Under the pieces are notes generated by a model. That model was given only the letters and a program-made list of their open reading frames with translations, ran no database searches and was not told where the DNA came from. DNA of 28,023 bases, taken from positions 1 to 28,023 of the forward strand of contig SUPR01000044.1 in NCBI GenBank assembly GCA_005191425.1, in the 5' to 3' direction. The translations under genes were made by a program, and so were the position numbers. This DNA comes from Candidatus Helarchaeota ASGARD archaeon Hel_GB_B. Lineage in GTDB: Archaea; Asgardarchaeota; Lokiarchaeia; Helarchaeales; HEL-GB-B. Each line of letters starts with the position of its first letter. Position 1 is the first letter of the stretch. Shown here one piece after another: positions 12,687-28,023 of the stretch.

Positions 12687-13637
12687 TTGGAAGATAATTT
12701 TGATGAAGTTAATAAAAATGCTAAAAAAGTTTTGAAAATCGTATTTACCGGACTAGACAATGCTGGTAAAACATCTATTTTAAATATATTACAAAAGCAA
12801 TATTCTAAATTGGGCTCTTCCTTAAAACCTACGACAGGTATTAATCGCAATACAATAAATTTCTTGGGATATAATATAGTTAATTGGGATTTAGGTGGAC
12901 AAGAAAAATATAGAAATGAATACCTAGATGAAGAATCTCGAGTATTTGAAGATACAGACTTGCTTTTTTATATAGTAGATATTACATCCAGGGAAAGGTT
13001 TTATGAATCGCTTGAATATTTTAAGAATATATTGTGGACTGCTTTTGAGTCAACAGAATTAACCACTTATCCAAATATTATAATCTGTCTCCATAAAGTG
13101 GATCCAGATATTAAAGATGATGAGTTAATTGCAGAAAATATTGAACTGGCAAAAGGTTTATTCGAAGAAAATTCGAAAAATTATAAAGTTAAATTTTTTC
13201 TAACAAGTATTTATGACGAATGGTCAATTTTTAAAGCATTTTCTTATGGTATGCAGCAGTTATCGTCAAAATTAGAAATATTAGAAAATATTTTGAAGAC
13301 CTTTGCTGAAAATACTTTTAGTGACGCTATTCTTTTATTAGATGGAAGTGCACTACCAATTGGAGAATATTATAAAGAAAAATTAGCAAGTGATATTATT
13401 AATATTTTAGCTCCTAATTTTGCGCCTTTATATGAGAGACTTGCTAAATTAAATATAAATATTGATAATATTTGGACGGAGTTTGGTGGTAAATATTCAT
13501 TATTTACTAGAATTGAAGTAAATAAACAACCATATTTTATAATTATAGTGACATTAAAAGAAAATGTTTATGAAATTTTAAGTAAATTGCCGAAATTTTC
13601 TAATGCATTAGGAAATATCCTTAAAACATTCTTTTAA
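12687..13637 (+). CDS. Small GTPase (Arf/Rag-like) fused to a C-terminal roadblock/longin-like domain
   Basis: G1 GLDNAGKT, G2 PTTG, G3 WDLGGQ, G4 HKVD, G5 TSIYD. The C-terminal ~125 aa have the helix-ILLLD...helix-strands layout of roadblock/longin domains. TTG start. Confidence 0.88.
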   Translation: MEDNFDEVNKNAKKVLKIVFTGLDNAGKTSILNILQKQYSKLGSSLKPTTGINRNTINFLGYNIVNWDLGGQEKYRNEYLDEESRVFEDTDLLFYIVDITSRERFYESLEYFKNILWTAFESTELTTYPNIIICLHKVDPDIKDDELIAENIELAKGLFEENSKNYKVKFFLTSIYDEWSIFKAFSYGMQQLSSKLEILENILKTFAENTFSDAILLLDGSALPIGEYYKEKLASDIINILAPNFAPLYERLAKLNINIDNIWTEFGGKYSLFTRIEVNKQPYFIIIVTLKENVYEILSKLPKFSNALGNILKTFF

Positions 13638-13664: not shown

Positions 13665-16232
13665 TTACACAGATAATTTATCTAATTTAAATGAAATAAA
13701 GCGGGAAATATAAATTTTTTTCTCCGTTTCTTGGATTTTTAGATAGTTTAGTAAATATTCTACCTCATTTTCTGTCAAATCATATATTTTAAAGAAAATT
13801 ATATCCAAAATTGCTGTATACTTTTTTAAATCCATATTAGATGGCGAATTAACTGAATTATTCTTAATTTCAATTATTTTACTTACAATTTTATTAATTA
13901 TATTTACATATTCTTTTGAAAAATAAATTGGAAATTTTAACAAAACTTCTTTATCAATTTGTAATAAATTACCATGTGTTTTTGAATTTTTGAAATAAAA
14001 AAATGCCAATTTTGAATTAAAAAGACCTAAAAGATATAATGAATAGATTTTACTTCTTAATAAAATAAAGTTCACCCCTTGATCCATAAAATAAGAAATG
14101 GGTACTAATGAAAATTTCGGATAAGGGGTTTTTCTGACAGAAATTATTTTATTTTTTGACTCAAAAATCTCCATTTTTCTAGGCCTGTGGAGGCCATATG
14201 GTTTTTTATCAGAAGTAATAATTGCTTGGAATTGGTCAAGGTGCTTGATTAAATTCGGATAATTTAATTGTATTTCATTTTTTATTTTTAAAATAGCATT
14301 TTTGTTTTTAATTAAATTAATATCATTTTTATCATAATCGAAATAATGTTTTGATACATAAATTATCCACTTGTCATTTTTCTTTTTATAATAAAATGGT
14401 CCAATATCATGAGGTTCGTAGAATGGTTTTATAAATTTTAATTCTTTTTCAGTTAAATTTAATTTTTTTAATTCTTTATTGGAAATTACTTGAATTCCAT
14501 CACCGATATTAAATTTATAATTTAAATTATTATTTAAAGTTTTTAGATGCGATTTTTTAACATTTTTCTGTGGTATAACTAATCCTTGTATTATCTGGTT
14601 AGTAGGTATATTAAAATTCTTTTTTTCTTCCATTTTTTGTAGGATATTTAGTGTAATTTTATCTATAAATTGTATGTTATCTAAATTTGAGATTTTAAGT
14701 AGTTTAGTTTCACATTCAATTCCTTTGATATTTTTGCCGCTCATTAATACTTTTGATATATCATTAATTGAAACATTGGGGTTTAGTATGGAAATAATTT
14801 TAATGAAATAATTAGAGTTATTAAATAGATTTTGATATTTTTGAAGTATTAAAATAGAGTTATGCTGACCAGATGCATCACTAAATATTTTGTATTCGTT
14901 GAATTCTACTACCTTATGTATAATTGAGCTATGAAGTATTTTTTTTCTTAGTTTATTTCCAAATGTTCTATTTTTCCAGTAATCCATTACAATAAAGCCT
15001 AAATACCCTTTATTTTTAAGAATATCAAGACTTCGTTCTATAAAAAAATAAAAAATGTCCATCTTTTGTTCATAATAGTCCTTGACTACTGGTGAAAGTT
15101 TATAAAGTCTAAATTTTTCTTTATTACCTCTAATTTCTGTAAAATATGGGGGATTTCCTATTATAATATCGAAACCCTTATTTTTTTTATAATTAAGGTC
15201 GTTGCTTACTTGAAAATAATTATAAAAAAATTCAATACATGAAATTACAGGTTTATTTTTAATTAAAATATTGTAATTTAGATTGTTACTTAAAATATAA
15301 TTTTGAGATTTAGTTAATACTTTATTTTTTATCTTTTTTTTCATTCGTTGTAATTTTAATATTAAATTTTTATCTATATTTTCATTGTAATTATAAATTA
15401 TGGTTTGATATAATGAAAACAATTCTTTAAGTTCGTCAGAAAGATTTTCTATTATAAATTTAGAAATCTTAAAATCAATTAGAAAATCAGCATTTATTAA
15501 ATTCAAATCCAAGATTGGTAGTAATATGTTTATAAAATTGGTAATATCAGATAAATTCAATTTATTTTTAACAAACTTCAAAATTTTATATGATAAATTC
15601 AATTTTGTAAGAATTATTGCATTTGGATCTAAATCTATTCCATGGATATGTCTCATTATAATAAGATAAATCAAATTTTGGTCATTATTTAAGCCTAATT
15701 GCCTTTTATACTCGAAAATTTTTTGATTTAATGTTTTTAACGTAATGGCGTCCATCAAATTATTGTTATCATTTATTTTTTCAAATAATTTTTCAATTTT
15801 CTTATATTTATTCCATATCATATTAAAAGCTGATATTAAAAATGTCCCTGAACCACATGCGGGGTCTAAAATTTTAATATTTACAATTTTTTCAATTGTC
15901 TTATCACAATTTTTAAAATCATTATGATTAAATTCTTTTATAAGTATAGATATTAATTTATCAAATAGAATTCCAATGGTATTTTTAATAATATATTCAA
16001 TAATATATTTAGGAGTATAATAAATTCCCGAGTTTTTTCTTATATTTTCTGAATTTAAATAAAATTCATATAATTTTCCCAATATATCCTCATTTTTGCC
16101 AAAAATATTCTGGAATCTTTTATAAATTTCATCGACCTTTTTTAAATCCTTATCTAAGTCGATTGTAGGTAAAGAAATAAAAAAACGGTTAATAGCTTCA
16201 ATATCTTCCACTGATTTTATAGACAACTTCAT
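13665..16232 (-). CDS. N6-adenine DNA methyltransferase (Eco57I/TaqI-like, gamma class) with C-terminal target-recognition region
   Basis: GIYYTP, ILDPACGSGTFL (motif I), GIDLDPNA, FDIIIGNPPY (motif IV) and TaqI-C-like YLLGLFNSKL. No nuclease domain recognised. Confidence 0.9.
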   Translation of the reverse strand: MKLSIKSVEDIEAINRFFISLPTIDLDKDLKKVDEIYKRFQNIFGKNEDILGKLYEFYLNSENIRKNSGIYYTPKYIIEYIIKNTIGILFDKLISILIKEFNHNDFKNCDKTIEKIVNIKILDPACGSGTFLISAFNMIWNKYKKIEKLFEKINDNNNLMDAITLKTLNQKIFEYKRQLGLNNDQNLIYLIIMRHIHGIDLDPNAIILTKLNLSYKILKFVKNKLNLSDITNFINILLPILDLNLINADFLIDFKISKFIIENLSDELKELFSLYQTIIYNYNENIDKNLILKLQRMKKKIKNKVLTKSQNYILSNNLNYNILIKNKPVISCIEFFYNYFQVSNDLNYKKNKGFDIIIGNPPYFTEIRGNKEKFRLYKLSPVVKDYYEQKMDIFYFFIERSLDILKNKGYLGFIVMDYWKNRTFGNKLRKKILHSSIIHKVVEFNEYKIFSDASGQHNSILILQKYQNLFNNSNYFIKIISILNPNVSINDISKVLMSGKNIKGIECETKLLKISNLDNIQFIDKITLNILQKMEEKKNFNIPTNQIIQGLVIPQKNVKKSHLKTLNNNLNYKFNIGDGIQVISNKELKKLNLTEKELKFIKPFYEPHDIGPFYYKKKNDKWIIYVSKHYFDYDKNDINLIKNKNAILKIKNEIQLNYPNLIKHLDQFQAIITSDKKPYGLHRPRKMEIFESKNKIISVRKTPYPKFSLVPISYFMDQGVNFILLRSKIYSLYLLGLFNSKLAFFYFKNSKTHGNLLQIDKEVLLKFPIYFSKEYVNIINKIVSKIIEIKNNSVNSPSNMDLKKYTAILDIIFFKIYDLTENEVEYLLNYLKIQETEKKIYISRFISFKLDKLSV

Positions 16233-16466: not shown

Positions 16467-17828
16467 ATGCCACCAAAAGTATGTTTTATGCAGTTAAGTA
16501 GTTGCTGGGGCTGCTATCAGTCTCTATTTGATGACTACGGAACTGATCTAGTAAATATATTAACGAATATAGAAATAGTTTATTTTCCTGCGGTAGTAGA
16601 TATAAAACACAAAGATTTTGAAGCATTACCGGATGGTTCTGTTGATGTTGGTTTTATTGAAGGAAATATAAGGACTACAGAAGATCTTCATAATGCGAAG
16701 TTAGTCAGGCAAAAGTGTAAGGTAGTTGTTGCAATGGGAAGTTGTGCTTGTTTTGGAGGAGTTCCCAGCCTTGCAAATTTATACACTAAAGAGGAATTAA
16801 TTGAGCGAAAATATACAACTGCAGATACAATTGTAGAAACAAAAGGATACCCAACCGAAAATGTTCCAGATATTTTAGAGAGCATCCCAGCAGTTCATGA
16901 AGTTATTGATGTAGATATATGGATACCTGGATGCCCTCCAATAACAGATCATCTCGTTGCAGCTTTTAAGTACATTCTTGCTTTACCATCTACGACCCCA
17001 TCAGATAAAAATATTTGTGATATTTGTGAATTGAGAGGCGATAAATGTCTATTAAATAGAGGAATATTATGTTTTGGTGCTTTATCAAGTGCAACATGCG
17101 AATTAAAATGCCCAAATAAGGGCGAAGTATGTTATGGTTGTACAGGCGCTACTAAAAATATTGCAAAAGCTGAAGCTAAGAAATTAATAGATTTAGTTTC
17201 TACTAAAGAACTGACTGAAACGGAAGTAGGGGATATTCTTAAATTTATCACATTATATGCAAAGATCCCAAATCTTGGTTATATGTATGTTAAAGGTGAT
17301 CCACTCCAAGCTTTAGGGCATAAAAGAGCAGATTATACAATTAAAACTGTTGAAGGTACCGGCATTAAGGCATTTGATTTGAGTGGATTCCCAGAGGAAA
17401 TTGGAATTTTGTTATATGCTGTAAGTAAAAGCAAACATTTCCATTATACAGAGCAAACAGTCTGTGCAACATGTCCTAGAAATAAAGAAGATAAATCGTT
17501 GAAGGGGCTAAAAAGAGATTATGAAGGTGGGGTAAAAGACCAAGAAAGATGCCTTTTAGAACAAGGATATTTATGTATGGGAATTGTGACTAAAGGCGGA
17601 TGCGGGGCTTTATGCATTAAAGCAAATTGTCCATGTCTTGGTTGTTATGGGCCCTCTCCTAATATCGTAGATGCGGGGGGTAAATTTACCACATCAATTG
17701 CATCAATAAGTACTGCTCTAGGAGTGCCTGATATAATTGAAAAGATTCCTGATCCTGCAGGTCAATTTTATAGATTTATGACCTCAGTATCACCATTTAA
17801 AAAGAAACAAAATGATTCTGGGATGTGA
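16467..17828 (+). CDS. mvhG: Group 3c-type [NiFe]-hydrogenase small subunit (MvhG/VhuG-like) with duplicated Fe-S module
   Basis: SCWGC, GSCA.FGG.P.LANL and IPGCPP, followed by two 8-Cys modules and KIPDPAGQFYRF. Confidence 0.88.
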   Translation: MPPKVCFMQLSSCWGCYQSLFDDYGTDLVNILTNIEIVYFPAVVDIKHKDFEALPDGSVDVGFIEGNIRTTEDLHNAKLVRQKCKVVVAMGSCACFGGVPSLANLYTKEELIERKYTTADTIVETKGYPTENVPDILESIPAVHEVIDVDIWIPGCPPITDHLVAAFKYILALPSTTPSDKNICDICELRGDKCLLNRGILCFGALSSATCELKCPNKGEVCYGCTGATKNIAKAEAKKLIDLVSTKELTETEVGDILKFITLYAKIPNLGYMYVKGDPLQALGHKRADYTIKTVEGTGIKAFDLSGFPEEIGILLYAVSKSKHFHYTEQTVCATCPRNKEDKSLKGLKRDYEGGVKDQERCLLEQGYLCMGIVTKGGCGALCIKANCPCLGCYGPSPNIVDAGGKFTTSIASISTALGVPDIIEKIPDPAGQFYRFMTSVSPFKKKQNDSGM

Positions 17829-17832
17829 TTAA

Positions 17833-18330
17833 ATGTCTATGGATTTAGAATTTAGGAGAATAGTTCTTGGTAAATATATGGACTCAACTTTACATTATTG
17901 TTTACAATGTAGTAGATGTAATGATGTATGCCCTGTTAATGAAGTATCTGATGGCGCATATAACCCTCGTTCAGTAATTCTTAATGCATTTTTAGGGCTG
18001 AAAGAAAACCTTATAGGTAAACCAAATAATATCGCAGTATGGGGCTGTCAAATTTGCGATACTTGTAATTTAACTTGCCCACAAGATATAGAATTGACAG
18101 ATATATTTTATATAGTTAAAAATCTATCAGTTCAAGCAGGAGAAGCTCCCGAATATTATGTAATTCAAGCTAAGGCAATATTAGAAAGCGGAAAAGCTAT
18201 TCCACTACAGACAGCAATTGAAAGACGAAGAAGTCAAATGGGACTTCCTGAAGTACCAACTGGATTCGAAGATGACGTAAAAATAATACTAAAAGAAACT
18301 GAATTGGAGGAAAAATTATCAAAATATTAG
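17833..18330 (+). CDS. hdrC: Heterodisulfide reductase subunit C (2x[4Fe-4S])
   Basis: CLQCSRCNDVCP and WGCQICDTCNLTCPQDI; lies directly upstream of hdrB. Confidence 0.9.
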   Translation: MSMDLEFRRIVLGKYMDSTLHYCLQCSRCNDVCPVNEVSDGAYNPRSVILNAFLGLKENLIGKPNNIAVWGCQICDTCNLTCPQDIELTDIFYIVKNLSVQAGEAPEYYVIQAKAILESGKAIPLQTAIERRRSQMGLPEVPTGFEDDVKIILKETELEEKLSKY

Positions 18331-18340
18331 GGTGATAAAA

Positions 18341-19219
18341 ATGTCAGAATATAAATTATTTGCTGGGTGTGTAATTCCAAATAGATTACCGTTTCTAGAA
18401 CTTGCATCAAGAAAAGTTTTCGAAAAATTGGGCGTCCAGACTTCTGATGCACCATTTAGCTGTTGTCCAGACCCAGTAGGATTCCAAAGTACTGATAAAG
18501 AAAGTTGGCTTGCCTTAGGAGCCCGTAATTTATGTATTGCCGAAGAAGAGGGCAAAGATATAGTTTCACTCTGTAATGGTTGCACTCAAACTTTAAAAGC
18601 AGTTCAATATGATATCGCAAGAGCTTCTGAACTTGAAAAACAACGAATTTCAGATATTTTAGCAAAAGTAAATAAAGAATATAAAGGCTCAATTACAGTT
18701 AAACACTTTGTACAAGTTCTAATTGAAGATGTTGGTATTGATAAAATTAAAAGTATGATAAAAAAACCGATAGAACTTAAAATTGCATGCCATACAGGAT
18801 GCCATTATGCCAGACCAGCTGAAGTAATGAATTGGGACGATCCGGAACATCCAATTTATCTTAGACAATTGGTCGAAGCTTGCGGAGCTACCCCTGTTGA
18901 TTATGAAGAGGAAGTCTTATGCTGTGGGGCTGGAGCAGGTAATGCAAAAACAGAATATGGACTTGGCGTTCTGAAACGCAAATTGGATAGCGTAATTTCT
19001 GCTGGTGCTGATTGCATTTGTGTAGTCTGTCCAGCTTGTTTTACTCAATTCGATACTCAACAACGAGCTTTATCAAAAATGGTAGAAAAGGAATATAAAA
19101 TTCCAGTACTCTATCTAACAGAATTAATGGCGCTAGGAATGGGCTTTACTCCAAAAGATTTAAATTTAAAATATCATGGAGTAAAAACTAAAAATATCAT
19201 GGAAAAAATTGGACTTTAA
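18341..19219 (+). CDS. hdrB: Heterodisulfide reductase subunit B (two CCG domains)
   Basis: F.GC.IP, SCCP, LCNGC, HTGCHY.RP, CCGAG, CPAC..QFD and PVLY.TEL..L. ATG 18341 follows SD GGGTGA; the ORF track starts at GTG 18332. Confidence 0.93.
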   Translation: MSEYKLFAGCVIPNRLPFLELASRKVFEKLGVQTSDAPFSCCPDPVGFQSTDKESWLALGARNLCIAEEEGKDIVSLCNGCTQTLKAVQYDIARASELEKQRISDILAKVNKEYKGSITVKHFVQVLIEDVGIDKIKSMIKKPIELKIACHTGCHYARPAEVMNWDDPEHPIYLRQLVEACGATPVDYEEEVLCCGAGAGNAKTEYGLGVLKRKLDSVISAGADCICVVCPACFTQFDTQQRALSKMVEKEYKIPVLYLTELMALGMGFTPKDLNLKYHGVKTKNIMEKIGL

Positions 19220-19239
19220 TCATTTAAAAATAACATAGA

Positions 19240-19268
19240 TTTTCTATTCTTTTTTAAAACCTTTTTTT
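19240..19268 (+). terminator. T-rich tract, probable terminator of mvhG-hdrC-hdrB
   Basis: Successive T runs 20-50 nt after the hdrB stop. Confidence 0.35.
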
Positions 19269-19353
19269 GTTATTTGAATTATATTTATCCTGAAAATAAA
19301 TTTGATTTGATTTCTTCAAAATGTTTTTCTAATCGTATTTTTTATTATATACT

Positions 19354-20223
19354 ATGACATTTCCAGGAATGGAAAAATGGAGAGAAAAACTCCCAAATTA
19401 TCAAGGGAATAAAATATATCTTTTTCTTTTAAATAGCATATTATTTTTAAGTATTGGATTAATTTTTTAGGTCTTATTTGATATTATACCAAGAATATAC
19501 TTTTATATTAATTTTTTAGTTATTTTAGAGCCCATTTTTCCTATTATTGTCCCATTGATCACGGTTATAATTGGACTAAATATATTAAGAAGTATTTGGA
19601 AAAATAAAGAAAAGTATATAAAAGAAAATAAAAGAACCACTTATCAGCGAGCATTTAAAAAGTTTACTATTGGTCTGCCCTTTTTATTTTCTGTTATAGC
19701 CCATATTTTTATTCCAATTCGAAGCTTTTTTTTAATAACACCCATAAATAATTTTACGATAATATTATCCACTTCAATTTTTGCTTTTTCACCTTTTACA
19801 TCATTAATAGGTTTTTATATTCAAGTAATTTTATCATTATTTTATCTAATTTTAGGACTTTTAATTGTAAGAAAATCACTTCAAGTATTTGGAATAGATT
19901 ATATGACATTAGTTTATTTATTTTATCCAAACGAATCAAAAATACAAAATCACAGAATATATTCTATTTTACATCATCCCACTTATACAGGTGCCATTTG
20001 CATAACTCTTGGAGGTCTATTCATTAATTTTTCAATTTATTCTATTATACAATTTTTTATGATTTTTTTAGGATTAAATTGTCATATTCGATTTGTAGAA
20101 GAGCCCGAATTAATTGAAAGATTTGGAAAAAGCTATATTGAATATAGAAAAAATGTGCCCGCTTTTTTAATTAGGTTTAGGGATATTCCCGAATTATTCA
20201 AGTTCATTATTGGAAAAAGATAA
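19354..20223 (+). pseudogene. ICMT/PEMT-family membrane methyltransferase interrupted by one in-frame TAG (19468-19470); pseudogene or read-through gene
   Basis: ATG 19354 is in frame with the tracked ORF 19555-20223: MTFPGMEKWREKLPNYQGNKIYLFLLNSILFLSIGLIF*VLFDIIPRIYFYINFLVILEPIFPIIVPLITV.... The C-terminus has YSILHHPTY and EEPELIERFGKSY.EY...VP.F. Confidence 0.7.
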
Positions 20224-20407
20224 AAAATACAGTTTTTATGAAAAATCAGATAATTTTTCCCCATTATAAATTTTAATCGATTTTTAAACTCAAAGAAGTC
20301 GATAATAAAAAGGTTTTAAGAATAAAAAACATCTATTATAGATAATAAAATTAAAATTTAGTAATAATATATAATAAAGTATAAAATAAATAAAGTAATT
20401 TGTTATT

Positions 20408-20854
20408 TTAACTTTTTTCTTTTTCCCACTTTTCTCGTTTTTCTTTTTTCATAGGGTTTGGGCCCAATTCGCGTATTTCCTCAACATATTCTTTTACTAG
20501 TTCCGTTAATTCAACACTATCAGAAGCAGAAATCCATTGAAGCTTAACACGATTTGGATTAATTCCAAATTGAGAAATTAGCTTTTGAACGATAGGAATT
20601 TTGCGTTCTGTTTTATAATTGCCTTCCACATAATGACAATCACCAGGAAAGCATCCACAGATAAGAATCCCATCTGCACCATTAGCAAGAGCCTTTAAAA
20701 CAAATGTGGCATCAACTCTACCAGAACACATTACTCTAATTATTCTTAGATTTGCGGGACGTTGCATTCTTGATGTACCTGCTGCATCGGCTCCAGCATA
20801 GGAACACCAATTACAAAAAATTCCAAGGATGTAAGGATCAAACTCTTCAGGCAT
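20408..20854 (-). CDS. mvhD: Hydrogenase iron-sulfur subunit MvhD ([2Fe-2S])
   Basis: FCNWCSYAGAD.AG..R, RIIRVMCSGRVD and GC.PGDCHY.EGN. Confidence 0.95.
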   Translation of the reverse strand: MPEEFDPYILGIFCNWCSYAGADAAGTSRMQRPANLRIIRVMCSGRVDATFVLKALANGADGILICGCFPGDCHYVEGNYKTERKIPIVQKLISQFGINPNRVKLQWISASDSVELTELVKEYVEEIRELGPNPMKKEKREKWEKEKS

Positions 20855-25324: not shown

Positions 25325-26077
25325 TTGGAGTTTCAAATGGACGTAGAAAAAGAACTTTTAAAGGAAATAAAAAAATTAGAGAAGAATTTATCGGACTTGA
25401 ATTCTAAATATAAATCAAGATTGATAGAAAAAGCAAGTTATGAAAAATCGAAAAGAATGATAGAAGAAAAAATACAAGATTTGAAAGAAAGATTAAATTA
25501 TTTAAAAAGGGCACGAGATAAACTTTCGGGAAAAACGGAAAAAAAGGAACAGGATTACGAAACTATTAGAGAATTCGATTTACAGAAGGAAATGGAGCTT
25601 TTATTAAAACATTATCAAATAGAGTTAGAACAATCGATTATTACAATATTTATAACAATTTCAATTAATAGGACCGAAAAAATATTTCTTTCAATCAAAG
25701 ACAAATATCATCCAATATTAAAATTGAATAAAAATCTGCTTTATTTAGGAGATCCTTTTGAATATTTAGAAACATTAAAAATGTGGAAGCAAGGAAAACT
25801 CGTCCATATAGTAGATATTATTCAAGAGTTTGAGAGATATTTATTAGACATAATTGGGATGGGCTCTCAATCGACTTTTGATCTTTATCAAGAGCGTAAG
25901 CATATACTTGAAAGAGCAAGAAAATTTTTAAAAGAGAAGGAATTAGGAAAAGCGACATATTTATATGATTATGCGGCGGAATTATCGTCTAGATTAGGCG
26001 AGGATAAAGTTGCAGCAGCATATAGAAACAAAGTGCATAAGTTAAGGGCACATATGAAGGGTGAATTTATTCTTTGA
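25325..26077 (+). CDS. Hypothetical protein: coiled coil + possible E2/UEV/RWD-like domain + helical TPR/MIT-like tail
   Basis: Lys/Glu-rich N-terminal heptads, central ...P.L.L...L...LETLKMW....VHIVDIIQEFE, and C-terminal ARKFLKEKELGKA.YLY..AAELS..LG. Start is TTG 25325 or ATG 25337. The fold call is inference. Confidence 0.65.
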   Translation: MEFQMDVEKELLKEIKKLEKNLSDLNSKYKSRLIEKASYEKSKRMIEEKIQDLKERLNYLKRARDKLSGKTEKKEQDYETIREFDLQKEMELLLKHYQIELEQSIITIFITISINRTEKIFLSIKDKYHPILKLNKNLLYLGDPFEYLETLKMWKQGKLVHIVDIIQEFERYLLDIIGMGSQSTFDLYQERKHILERARKFLKEKELGKATYLYDYAAELSSRLGEDKVAAAYRNKVHKLRAHMKGEFIL

Positions 26078-26078
26078 A

Positions 26079-26864
26079 TTAAGGTAATTTAGGACCACTT
26101 TTTTCTTTTTCCAAAATACTCATAAAAAGGCATTGATCTTTAGGTATAAGCATATTTTCTTTACTTTTTTCGGTTAGCGTTATCTTAGCTCCTTGAATAA
26201 TAGCGACAGGGATTTGCTGATTAGTTTCACCAAATAAAAGTTGAGCAAGACTGGAGAGATCATCCGCAATAGCACGATATGTGTATTTTAATTTATACCC
26301 ATAAAGGTCTTCTTTATTTCTACAATCTTCAATAGGTTCCATTCCAGATACAGCAAGTGCACCACCGATTACCCCTTTTTTTAATGGTTGAGTTCTTGAA
26401 TCAGCTATGATTATTGCTAATTTTTTTTTGAAATGTCCCTGTAATTTTTTTCGGATATTATCAGCTGTTTCTTGTAAATTTTTTGGTAAAAGAACTACAA
26501 AGCCAGGTGGTGCATTAGATTTATCGACCCCAGCATTTGCGTGTATAAAACCGTTTTTCTCTGTTAATAATACACCATTTACACCGCCAAGTATTTTATC
26601 AGCTTCATTTAATATTAATTCAACAAAATTTGGTTCCATATAATATTTTTTAGCTAATTTTTCTGCTTCATCAGATGGTTTAACACTTTCAAGTTTTATA
26701 ATACGATTTTGAGAAATTGCTAAAGGTGTTTCAGCAATAACTATAACATCGCCGTCATTAATTTGAAGTTTATTTGTTTCAATTGTATCAATAATAATTT
26801 GGACAATATCATCCCCAGGTTGAATTATTGGCGTCTTTAATCCATAACAAATTATTTTTTCCAC
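26079..26864 (-). CDS. cofE: CofE-family gamma-glutamyl ligase (F420-0:glutamate ligase or folate glutamyl ligase FolC2)
   Basis: P.IQPGDD, GDVIVIAE, ANAGVD.SN, II.DS...PL..G, D.R...DLYG..L.....A.ADDL and E.....P.AII.G. Confidence 0.88.
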   Translation of the reverse strand: MEKIICYGLKTPIIQPGDDIVQIIIDTIETNKLQINDGDVIVIAETPLAISQNRIIKLESVKPSDEAEKLAKKYYMEPNFVELILNEADKILGGVNGVLLTEKNGFIHANAGVDKSNAPPGFVVLLPKNLQETADNIRKKLQGHFKKKLAIIIADSRTQPLKKGVIGGALAVSGMEPIEDCRNKEDLYGYKLKYTYRAIADDLSSLAQLLFGETNQQIPVAIIQGAKITLTEKSKENMLIPKDQCLFMSILEKEKSGPKLP

Positions 26865-26877
26865 GATATATCATCTA

Positions 26878-27735
26878 TCAAATTGATACTTTATCAAGAA
26901 ATTGGGCATAATTTTTAAGCTTCCAAGAGATATCAACAACATCTCTAGTTTCTTTAACATCATGAGTACGAATGATATGAGCCCCATTATATACGGCAAT
27001 ACTAGTACAAGCTAATGTCCCAATAAGTCTATCTTTAGGGTCAGGATAATTTAAAATATCACCAACAAAAGATTTTCTTGAAATAGAAACAAGAATGGGT
27101 TTATTTAATTGCCTGAATTTAGCAAGTTGGTCTAATAATTCTAAATTATACCAAGCAATCTTAGAAGGAACCCATCTACCAATACTTGGATCAATGACTA
27201 TCTTTTTTGAGTTATATCCTAATTTTTCTATTGCTGATATAGATTGTTGAAGTGCTTTAATAGAATCATTTATACCTAAACAATCTCCAGGTACTTTATT
27301 TGACGCCATAATAATTGTATCTGCATTATGGTCAATAATTGTACTCATTATTTTTGTGTCTGTCTTAAATCCACTTACATCATTTATAATATCTGCACCT
27401 AAAGAAAGAGATTTTTCAGCTATTTTAGAATATTGGGTATCAATTGAAATAGGGATATCATAATTATTACGAATAAATTTTAATATAGGTATCAATCGGT
27501 CCATTTCTTCCTGGACAGAAATAGGTTTGACACCAGGAGCAGTTGAACGAGCACCTATATCAATAAAGTCCACGCCTTCATTAATAAATTTTTCAACTTT
27601 TTTGGAAACTTCGGATTTTTTCGTAGTAATTGATTGTTTGTAAAATGATTCTCTACTTAAATTGATAATTCCAAGAATTTTTATTGGATGATTATCACCG
27701 ACTTTAAGACCGGAAAAAATAGTTTTAATCGACAT
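26878..27735 (-). CDS. folP: Dihydropteroate synthase
   Basis: GIINLS.ESF, DIGARST.PG, ISIDT, INDVSG, IDP.IG, SRKSF and GAHIIRTHDV. Confidence 0.93.
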   Translation of the reverse strand: MSIKTIFSGLKVGDNHPIKILGIINLSRESFYKQSITTKKSEVSKKVEKFINEGVDFIDIGARSTAPGVKPISVQEEMDRLIPILKFIRNNYDIPISIDTQYSKIAEKSLSLGADIINDVSGFKTDTKIMSTIIDHNADTIIMASNKVPGDCLGINDSIKALQQSISAIEKLGYNSKKIVIDPSIGRWVPSKIAWYNLELLDQLAKFRQLNKPILVSISRKSFVGDILNYPDPKDRLIGTLACTSIAVYNGAHIIRTHDVKETRDVVDISWKLKNYAQFLDKVSI

Positions 27736-27765
27736 ATTACCAAATCAACTAATTATTAGTAAAAA

Positions 27766-28023
27766 TTAATGTTTAAAACACCGGAATCCAGTAAATATTA
27801 ATGGTAAATTATGTTCATTCGCAGCTTCAATTACTTCTTCATCCCGGATAGAGCCGCCTGGTTCTATTATTGCTGTAATTCCAGCTTTAGCAGCGATATC
27901 AATACTATCACGGAAAGGGAAAAAAGCATCGGAAGCAAGTACACATCCTTTTACATTATTACCGCCTTTTTTAATTGCAAGTTCAACTGCATCAACTCTA
28001 CTCATTTGTCCAGCGCCTATACC
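27766..28023 (-). CDS. purH: Bifunctional AICAR transformylase/IMP cyclohydrolase, C-terminal end (partial)
   Basis: [38 protein letters not shown] and TG.R.F.H. The frame is open to the window edge. Confidence 0.95.

Follow-up and report, generated by a model that had tools for sequence, protein, structure and literature searches.

A purH-folP-gene X array at the end of a Helarchaeales contig

The window analyzed here is the whole of contig C123, 28,023 nucleotides in length, from a 3.54-Mb Helarchaeales assembly (28% GC, 93.7% complete); the closest named homologs belong to Ca. Helarchaeota, which makes a Helarchaeales Asgard archaeon the most likely host. Three co-oriented minus-strand genes lie at its end (Table 1): a purH that is cut by the contig end, with the remainder beyond C123; folP; and a gene of the CofE family, hereafter gene X. 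The purH/folP and folP/X gaps are 30 nt and 13 nt, respectively, so that the arrangement described in the first-pass annotation is exact in the open reading frame coordinates, and an independent JGI gene call yields identical 285-aa and 261-aa products. The purH fragment shares 89% identity with the complete PurH (516 aa) encoded in a genome from the same genus (G001); the AICAR formyltransferase activity of PurH uses 10-formyl-THF. FolP belongs to the bacterial/TIGR01496 type, with just 33 bits for TIGR00284, and contains the SRKS pABA-site motif at residues 219-222. The order purH-folP-X is repeated in loci from other genomes (L032, L036, L080, L082, L235, and L236) and, because it recurs, is not a chance arrangement. 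A sigma-70 promoter and terminator scan, with a model that does not cover archaeal promoters, gave signals at background level.

Table 1. Features of the 28,023-nt window
Feature	Position	Strand	Description	Profile evidence
GTPase gene	12687-13637	+	Gtr1/RagA-family small GTPase; eukaryote-like, typical of Asgard archaea	PF04670, 105.9 bits
Methylase gene	13665-16232	-	Eco57I-type restriction-modification methylase	
Redox gene group	16467-20854		Hydrogenase small-subunit-like gene, hdrC-hdrB, methyltransferase, mvhD-like gene	
Convergent gene	25325-26077	+	Protein of ~246 aa, convergent with gene X, 1 nt between stops	No Pfam match
Gene X	26079-26864	-	CofE family (COG1478), 261 aa, GTG start	PF01996, 244.9 bits
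folP	26878-27735	-	Dihydropteroate synthase, 285 aa	TIGR01496, 229.5 bits (cut-off 162.6)
purH, partial	27766-28023	-	C-terminal 85 codons, AICAR formyltransferase domain	PRK00881/TIGR00355, model positions 424-510

Folate, F420, and methanopterin genes in the host genome

The first-pass annotation pointed to the lack of folC and of F420 biosynthesis genes in the window. Both statements hold for the window; across the genome, only the former does. No folC was found in a genome-wide search of the host assembly, whereas the F420 pathway is complete, with fbiE-like, cofD, and cofC genes on contig C128 and cofG and cofH on C143. The argument on the function of X therefore rests on the existence of a second cofE rather than on a lack of F420, unlike the case of Chlamydia, where the folate ligase argument was built on just such a lack.

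The methanopterin genes of the host include mch, RFAP synthase, MptA, MptE, and a TIGR00284 DHPS-like gene, which we take to be a candidate for the methanopterin pathway. Folate-dependent enzymes are represented by glyA adjoining folD on C45, purH, and a purN-like gene, and a divergent ThyA is present. Profile searches of the host genome produced no match for Fhs, DHFR, or ThyX, and BLAST none for MetF or GcvT; a standalone Prd-like domain was not found in this genome (G000), and its matches to DmrX-like flavoproteins were all under the cut-off. This inventory fits the serine-fed, biosynthesis-only H4F pool of Methanosarcinaceae (PMC9012536), so that folate is probably used alongside methanopterin. 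The alternative considered at first, folate instead of methanopterin, does not agree with the presence of mch, RFAP synthase, and the TIGR00284 DHPS-like gene.

A canonical cofE across an assembly gap

Gene X is the sole CofE-family gene in this assembly, and most of 60 relatives carry two. In a genome of the same genus, the other cofE copy adjoins hypD, and the host hypD is truncated by the end of contig C166. Four other assemblies span this break with the order hypD-cofE-mobA; the two of these that were compared with C166 show 99.8-99.9% DNA identity over 7.8 kb. The recovered cofE contains the canonical DT-GRPFR motif and shares 41% identity with X; it reaches 291.7 bits for TIGR01916 and 281.2 for PRK13293 (above the cut-off). 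The second cofE that the first-pass annotation proposed to look for thus exists, just across the C166 gap, in near-identical assemblies, and the F420 role is therefore already filled. The possibility that X serves F420 as the only cofE of the assembly was accordingly ruled out.

In most f4 Lokiarchaeia, the canonical cofE is fused to an FbiE-like nitroreductase in an FbiB-like architecture (L053:6087-7499 and related loci) and is located before cofD and downstream of a LipS1-type lipoyl synthase.

X belongs to a distinct clade with altered F420-ring contacts

The score of X on the F420 model TIGR01916 is 193.6 bits, a narrow pass over the cut-off of 180.65. It fails both PRK13293 (207 against 274) and the Chlamydia/Wolbachia model TIGR04132, ‘putative folate metabolism gamma-glutamate ligase’ (106.8 bits against 350), and thus falls outside this narrow model, on which other X members score 83-171 and canonical copies 82-90. 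The narrow pass on TIGR01916 combined with the failure on TIGR04132 explains the ‘cofE’ label in databases. Short homologs with a better score for TIGR04132 than for TIGR01916 fall inside the clade of X; these are proxies, and CT611 is not among them. Plasmid, phage, and viral searches for a CT611-type sequence returned only F420-type or other homologs, and a match to a DNA pattern derived from CT611 primers, on an unrelated contig, was discarded as fortuitous.

Phylogenies were built with FastTree (294 sequences) and with IQ-TREE (69 sequences, shortened search). In both trees, X groups with every folate-linked copy in one clade (clade X) that contains none of the canonical CofEs, whether these come from bacteria, Methanosarcinales, or Asgard archaea; the comparison with bona fide CofE suggested at the outset thus sets the window protein apart from it. 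The support for clade X is moderate (SH 0.93 in FastTree; SH-aLRT 88 and UFBoot 75 in IQ-TREE); for clade X together with a Bacillus plasmid homolog, SH-aLRT and UFBoot are 98 and 99.

The AlphaFold model of X (pLDDT 90) superimposes on A. fulgidus CofE (AF2256; PDB 2PHN and 7ULD) with a TM score of 0.83 to 2PHN, and the likeness extends from the fold to the catalytic acidic residues; GTP/Mn acyl-phosphate chemistry is presumably common to both. In A. fulgidus numbering, D109, N112, D150, S/T151, D196, and E208 are retained in X. Among these, D109, D150, T151, and E208, which we take to be the catalytic and metal residues, correspond to D114, D155, S156, and E213 of the window protein and are 97-100% conserved in clade X. 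The position of Lys45, presumably a GTP contact of CofE, is lost. The contacts of CofE to the F420 ring are G153-C155, R234, and F92 (PMC10861534). G153 and R154, present in 95% and 100% of canonical copies, respectively, are replaced by T/V and Q in X, and R234, present in 89%, by I or S/P. The window protein has T158-Q159-P160 in place of G153-C155, no arginine at the R234 position, and no aromatic residue at 93-100, the F92 region, a stretch that aligns ambiguously. Clade X is characterized by the motif DSRxxPLxxG versus D[ST]xGRPFRxG in canonical CofE. The predicted catalytic core is intact and the predicted ring pocket is remodeled, a pattern in keeping with a new substrate.

X is linked to folate genes

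Unlike canonical CofE, X is linked to folate genes rather than to cof genes. The 40 loci from Lokiarchaeia relatives comprise 25 copies of X and 15 canonical copies: folP lies within ~6 kb of 24 of the former, whether co-oriented, divergent, or spaced, and of none of the latter, nine of which belong to a cofE-nitroreductase-cofD unit. Outside Lokiarchaeia, 80 X loci include folP in 43 and cofD in none, so that cofD was not found beside X in any of 105 loci.

The layouts vary across phyla, with partners that remain linked to folate: glyA-folD-purN-folP-X in Hydrothermarchaeota, glyA-folD-thiC-purH-folP-X in a genome labeled Methanocellales, gcvH-gcvT-folP-X in Baldrarchaeota, 5-formyl-THF cycloligase-purH-folP-X in Helarchaeota, glyA-folD-folP-metV-metF-thiC-X in a complete Methanolobus genome, glyA-folD-folP-X in a Halobacteriota genome, X with purH, purN, folD, and glyA in Aenigmatarchaeota, and, in additional Asgard families, X-folP or folP-X. 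In Odinarchaeota, X adjoins mptE. According to the account of the H4F cluster in PMC9012536 (citing Buchenau and Thauer 2004), this cluster of Methanosarcinaceae and ANME-2/3 consists of glyA, folD, folP, metV, metF, and purN, and the H4F-specific enzymes of Methanosarcina barkeri are encoded in such a cluster; that account lists no glutamylating enzyme and does not mention cofE. X is located within the H4F cluster, or at its end, in Methanolobus, Methanosarcina, and Methanoperedens.

One protein of 555 aa, P0134, is a fusion of X with FolP, the FolP part of which scores above the TIGR01496 cut-off; it is known from one 4.4-kb metagenomic contig, and a search with P0134 did not retrieve another protein of this kind. 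When longer proteins were screened for other fusions of X, only a canonical CofE-nitroreductase fusion emerged.

Many X-linked archaeal FolPs carry a C-terminal extension of ~130 aa (L090:2690-3106 and 30 other loci). The extension profile matches the FolC/FolP linker of a Haloarcula fusion (L214, residues 453-523) with 12.6 bits and an E-value of 4e-6 against one sequence. We take the FolC-FolP linker of haloarchaea to be the dihydropteroate reductase Prd, and the extension would supply the reduction step where DHFR is absent. A FolP-fused reductase of this kind is listed in PMC1971073. The window FolP lacks the extension.

X and folC have complementary distributions

The first-pass annotation also proposed to look for a canonical folC. 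None of 201 Asgard genomes and none of 51 X-bearing genomes gave a match above the cut-off; weak Asgard matches (<31 bits), mostly covering a short N-terminal stretch of ~880-aa open reading frames, were rejected as folC. The X profile matched at E<=1e-78 in 146 of the 201 Asgard genomes, and the X-type motif was seen in all 20 loci inspected. In four f5 Lokiarchaeia (one of them a single 4.36-Mb contig) and one Aenigmatarchaeota genome, X is the only CofE homolog, and cofD and cofG were not found in these five genomes.

For Halobacteriota, we requested 141 genomes at >=90% completeness and called X at E<=1e-70, a threshold that could miss very divergent copies. Of the 74 folD-positive genomes, 52 have X and 22 have folC, with neither overlap nor gap, a split that comes from related genomes and reflects few independent events, the folC genomes being mostly FolC-FolP fusions of one group. 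Among the 67 folD-negative genomes, folC occurs in two and a divergent X, with DSRILPLRRG, in three (L237, L238, and L239, all small genomes), one of which overlaps folP. A control search of M. acetivorans detected no folC.

FolC (DHFS/FPGS, TIGR01499) catalyzes the step that we propose for X and is distributed in a complementary manner in Halobacteriota; in haloarchaea it forms FolC-linker-FolP fusions, and X is likewise linked to FolP and, once, fused to it. FolC, however, has the Mur-ligase fold and depends on ATP, whereas X has an unrelated fold and presumably depends on GTP.

Predicted function of X and alternative readings

The precedent for such a replacement is FolC2 of Chlamydia: CT611 (COG1478) rescues an E. 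coli folC mutant (PMC1971073), and the gene for this member of the same family lies among folate genes, folP included, with folC missing and the same reaction proposed (PMC1971073, PMC4161248). X likewise is a COG1478 gene with folate genes as neighbors and no folC in its genome, which is the genomic setting of FolC2; it differs from FolC2 in being archaeal and in occurring in organisms that possess a second cofE and also produce F420. The assignment builds on gene content, clade membership, residue changes, neighborhoods, and phyletic complementarity, and we consider it likely that X is an archaeal pteroate/folate gamma-glutamyl ligase of the FolC2 type, with folate used alongside methanopterin. 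We infer the substrate, the nucleotide, and the order of reduction and glutamylation; dihydropteroate, tetrahydropteroate, and folate polyglutamates may all be candidate substrates.

Under this assignment, X would be a non-homologous replacement of FolC and the folate glutamylating enzyme of this archaeon. MptA/MptD/MptE-type enzymes would provide pterin diphosphate, a supply common to methanopterin synthesis, and FolP would condense it with pABA into dihydropteroate. X would then activate the terminal carboxylate of the pteroate through an acyl-phosphate, with a nucleoside triphosphate (GTP in CofE) and a divalent metal, and add L-glutamate, one or possibly several, in gamma linkage, by analogy with CofE chemistry (PMC10861534, PMC8498797). 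The reduced folate would carry C1 units from serine (GlyA) via FolD to PurH and the PurN-like enzyme for purine synthesis, while H4MPT would serve catabolism and the canonical cofE would finish F420.

The proposal of the first-pass annotation that the CofE homolog glutamylates folate and not F420 thus gains support from the second cofE, the lost ring contacts, the folate gene linkage, and the complementarity with folC; its putative FolC-independent archaeal THF route is in line with the lack of folC and with a clade whose distribution follows that of folate genes and complements that of folC. Counting against the assignment are the score of X on TIGR01916, which is above that on TIGR04132, the lack of any DHFR, Prd-like domain, or Fhs found in the host genome for the reduction step, and the three folD-negative Halobacteriota with a divergent X. 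The neighborhood of X in Thorarchaeota, the few independent lineages behind the phyletic split, the moderate support for clade X, and the loss of the Lys45 position also weigh against it.

An improbable alternative, albeit the best of those considered, is that X glutamylates a methanopterin-type or modified pterin, with a sarcinapterin-like tail, and that FolP feeds this pathway rather than folate. The genome makes H4MPT (mch, RFAP synthase), X adjoins mptE in Odinarchaeota, and three folD-negative genomes retain X; its position beside mtrH/mtrA-like and methanogenesis-marker-14 genes in Thorarchaeota could point to a methanopterin-type pterin as well. However, a separate TIGR00284 DHPS-like gene is present, and X is missing at E<=1e-70 from the majority of folD-negative Halobacteriota. 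The alpha-glutamate of sarcinapterin, furthermore, is added by the ATP-grasp protein MptN. The neighbors of X are mostly the H4F-specific enzymes PurH, PurN, and FolD (PMC3261824). Slightly less probable still is a back-up or dual-use role of X as an F420-0:glutamate ligase, in line with its database annotation, with an incidental adjacency to folP: X passes the TIGR01916 equivalog cut-off and shares the fold of A. fulgidus CofE in an organism that makes F420, but a canonical cofE already exists, the ring contacts are replaced, genomes in which neither cofD nor cofG was found still keep X, and none of 105 loci has it beside cofD. That X ligates an amino acid to a carboxylate unrelated to pterins, as the occurrence of COG1478 members in unrelated contexts might suggest, including the Bacillus plasmid homolog that branches next to X, is very unlikely, given that the folP linkage across phyla, the X-FolP fusion, and the folC complementarity would be left unexplained.

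In the literature searched, we found no assignment of an archaeal CofE paralog to folate, although an earlier mention, also in SEED annotations, may exist. FolC2 of Chlamydia was already known; what is new here, as sequence comparison suggests, is an archaeal, folate-linked clade of CofE paralogs as a FolC2-like variant.

Implications

Methanosarcinaceae use H4F for biosynthesis (PMC9012536), and folate ligation by X would name a candidate for the missing glutamylation step in Methanosarcina, with M. acetivorans being genetically tractable, and in Asgard archaea; it would also provide a second example of a single ligase fold that switches between F420 and folate. More broadly, and with less assurance than for the function of X itself, we lean towards the view that X glutamylates folate by default in those archaea that use folate and are not halophilic (most Asgard lineages, Methanosarcinales, and the remaining Halobacteriota), closing the FolC hole of Methanosarcina, and that FolP-Prd and X together form a FolC-independent, often DHFR-independent archaeal THF route. 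If so, Asgard archaea would not have supplied the FolC-family enzymes of eukaryotes, and many archaeal ‘cofE’ annotations, with the F420 predictions built on them, would be wrong. The motifs DSRxxPLxxG and D[ST]xGRPFRxG separate the putative folate-type from the F420-type CofE homologs, which NCBI names identically, a split with consequences for predicting F420 in Asgard and DPANN genomes. The proposed function of X also bears on the C1 cofactors that the Asgard relatives of eukaryotes make themselves.

Further associations of X and its relatives

Several other arrangements were observed. P0159 is a fusion of X with a cytidine deaminase domain, and two Halobacteriota (L233 and L234) have X open reading frames of ~400 aa, similar to P0159, directly after folP. 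In the folate cluster of Methanosarcinales, a radical SAM gene of the thiC family directly precedes X (L090:4713-5969 and 21 other loci). Thorarchaeota and related genomes (L135, L154, and L128 in G246, G251, and G257) contain two or three CofE-family genes, with no cofD or cofG found; here, X follows metVF, mtrH/mtrA-like, and methanogenesis-marker-14 genes. The Bacillus thuringiensis plasmid COG1478 gene (L209:3968-4738), which branches beside clade X, lies next to shikimate dehydrogenase and TIM-barrel genes, with no F420 or folate genes nearby, and possibly has a third function. Finally, the ~246-aa protein encoded convergently with gene X in the window keeps its position beside X in several Helarchaeales (L032, L035, L039, L043, and L080).
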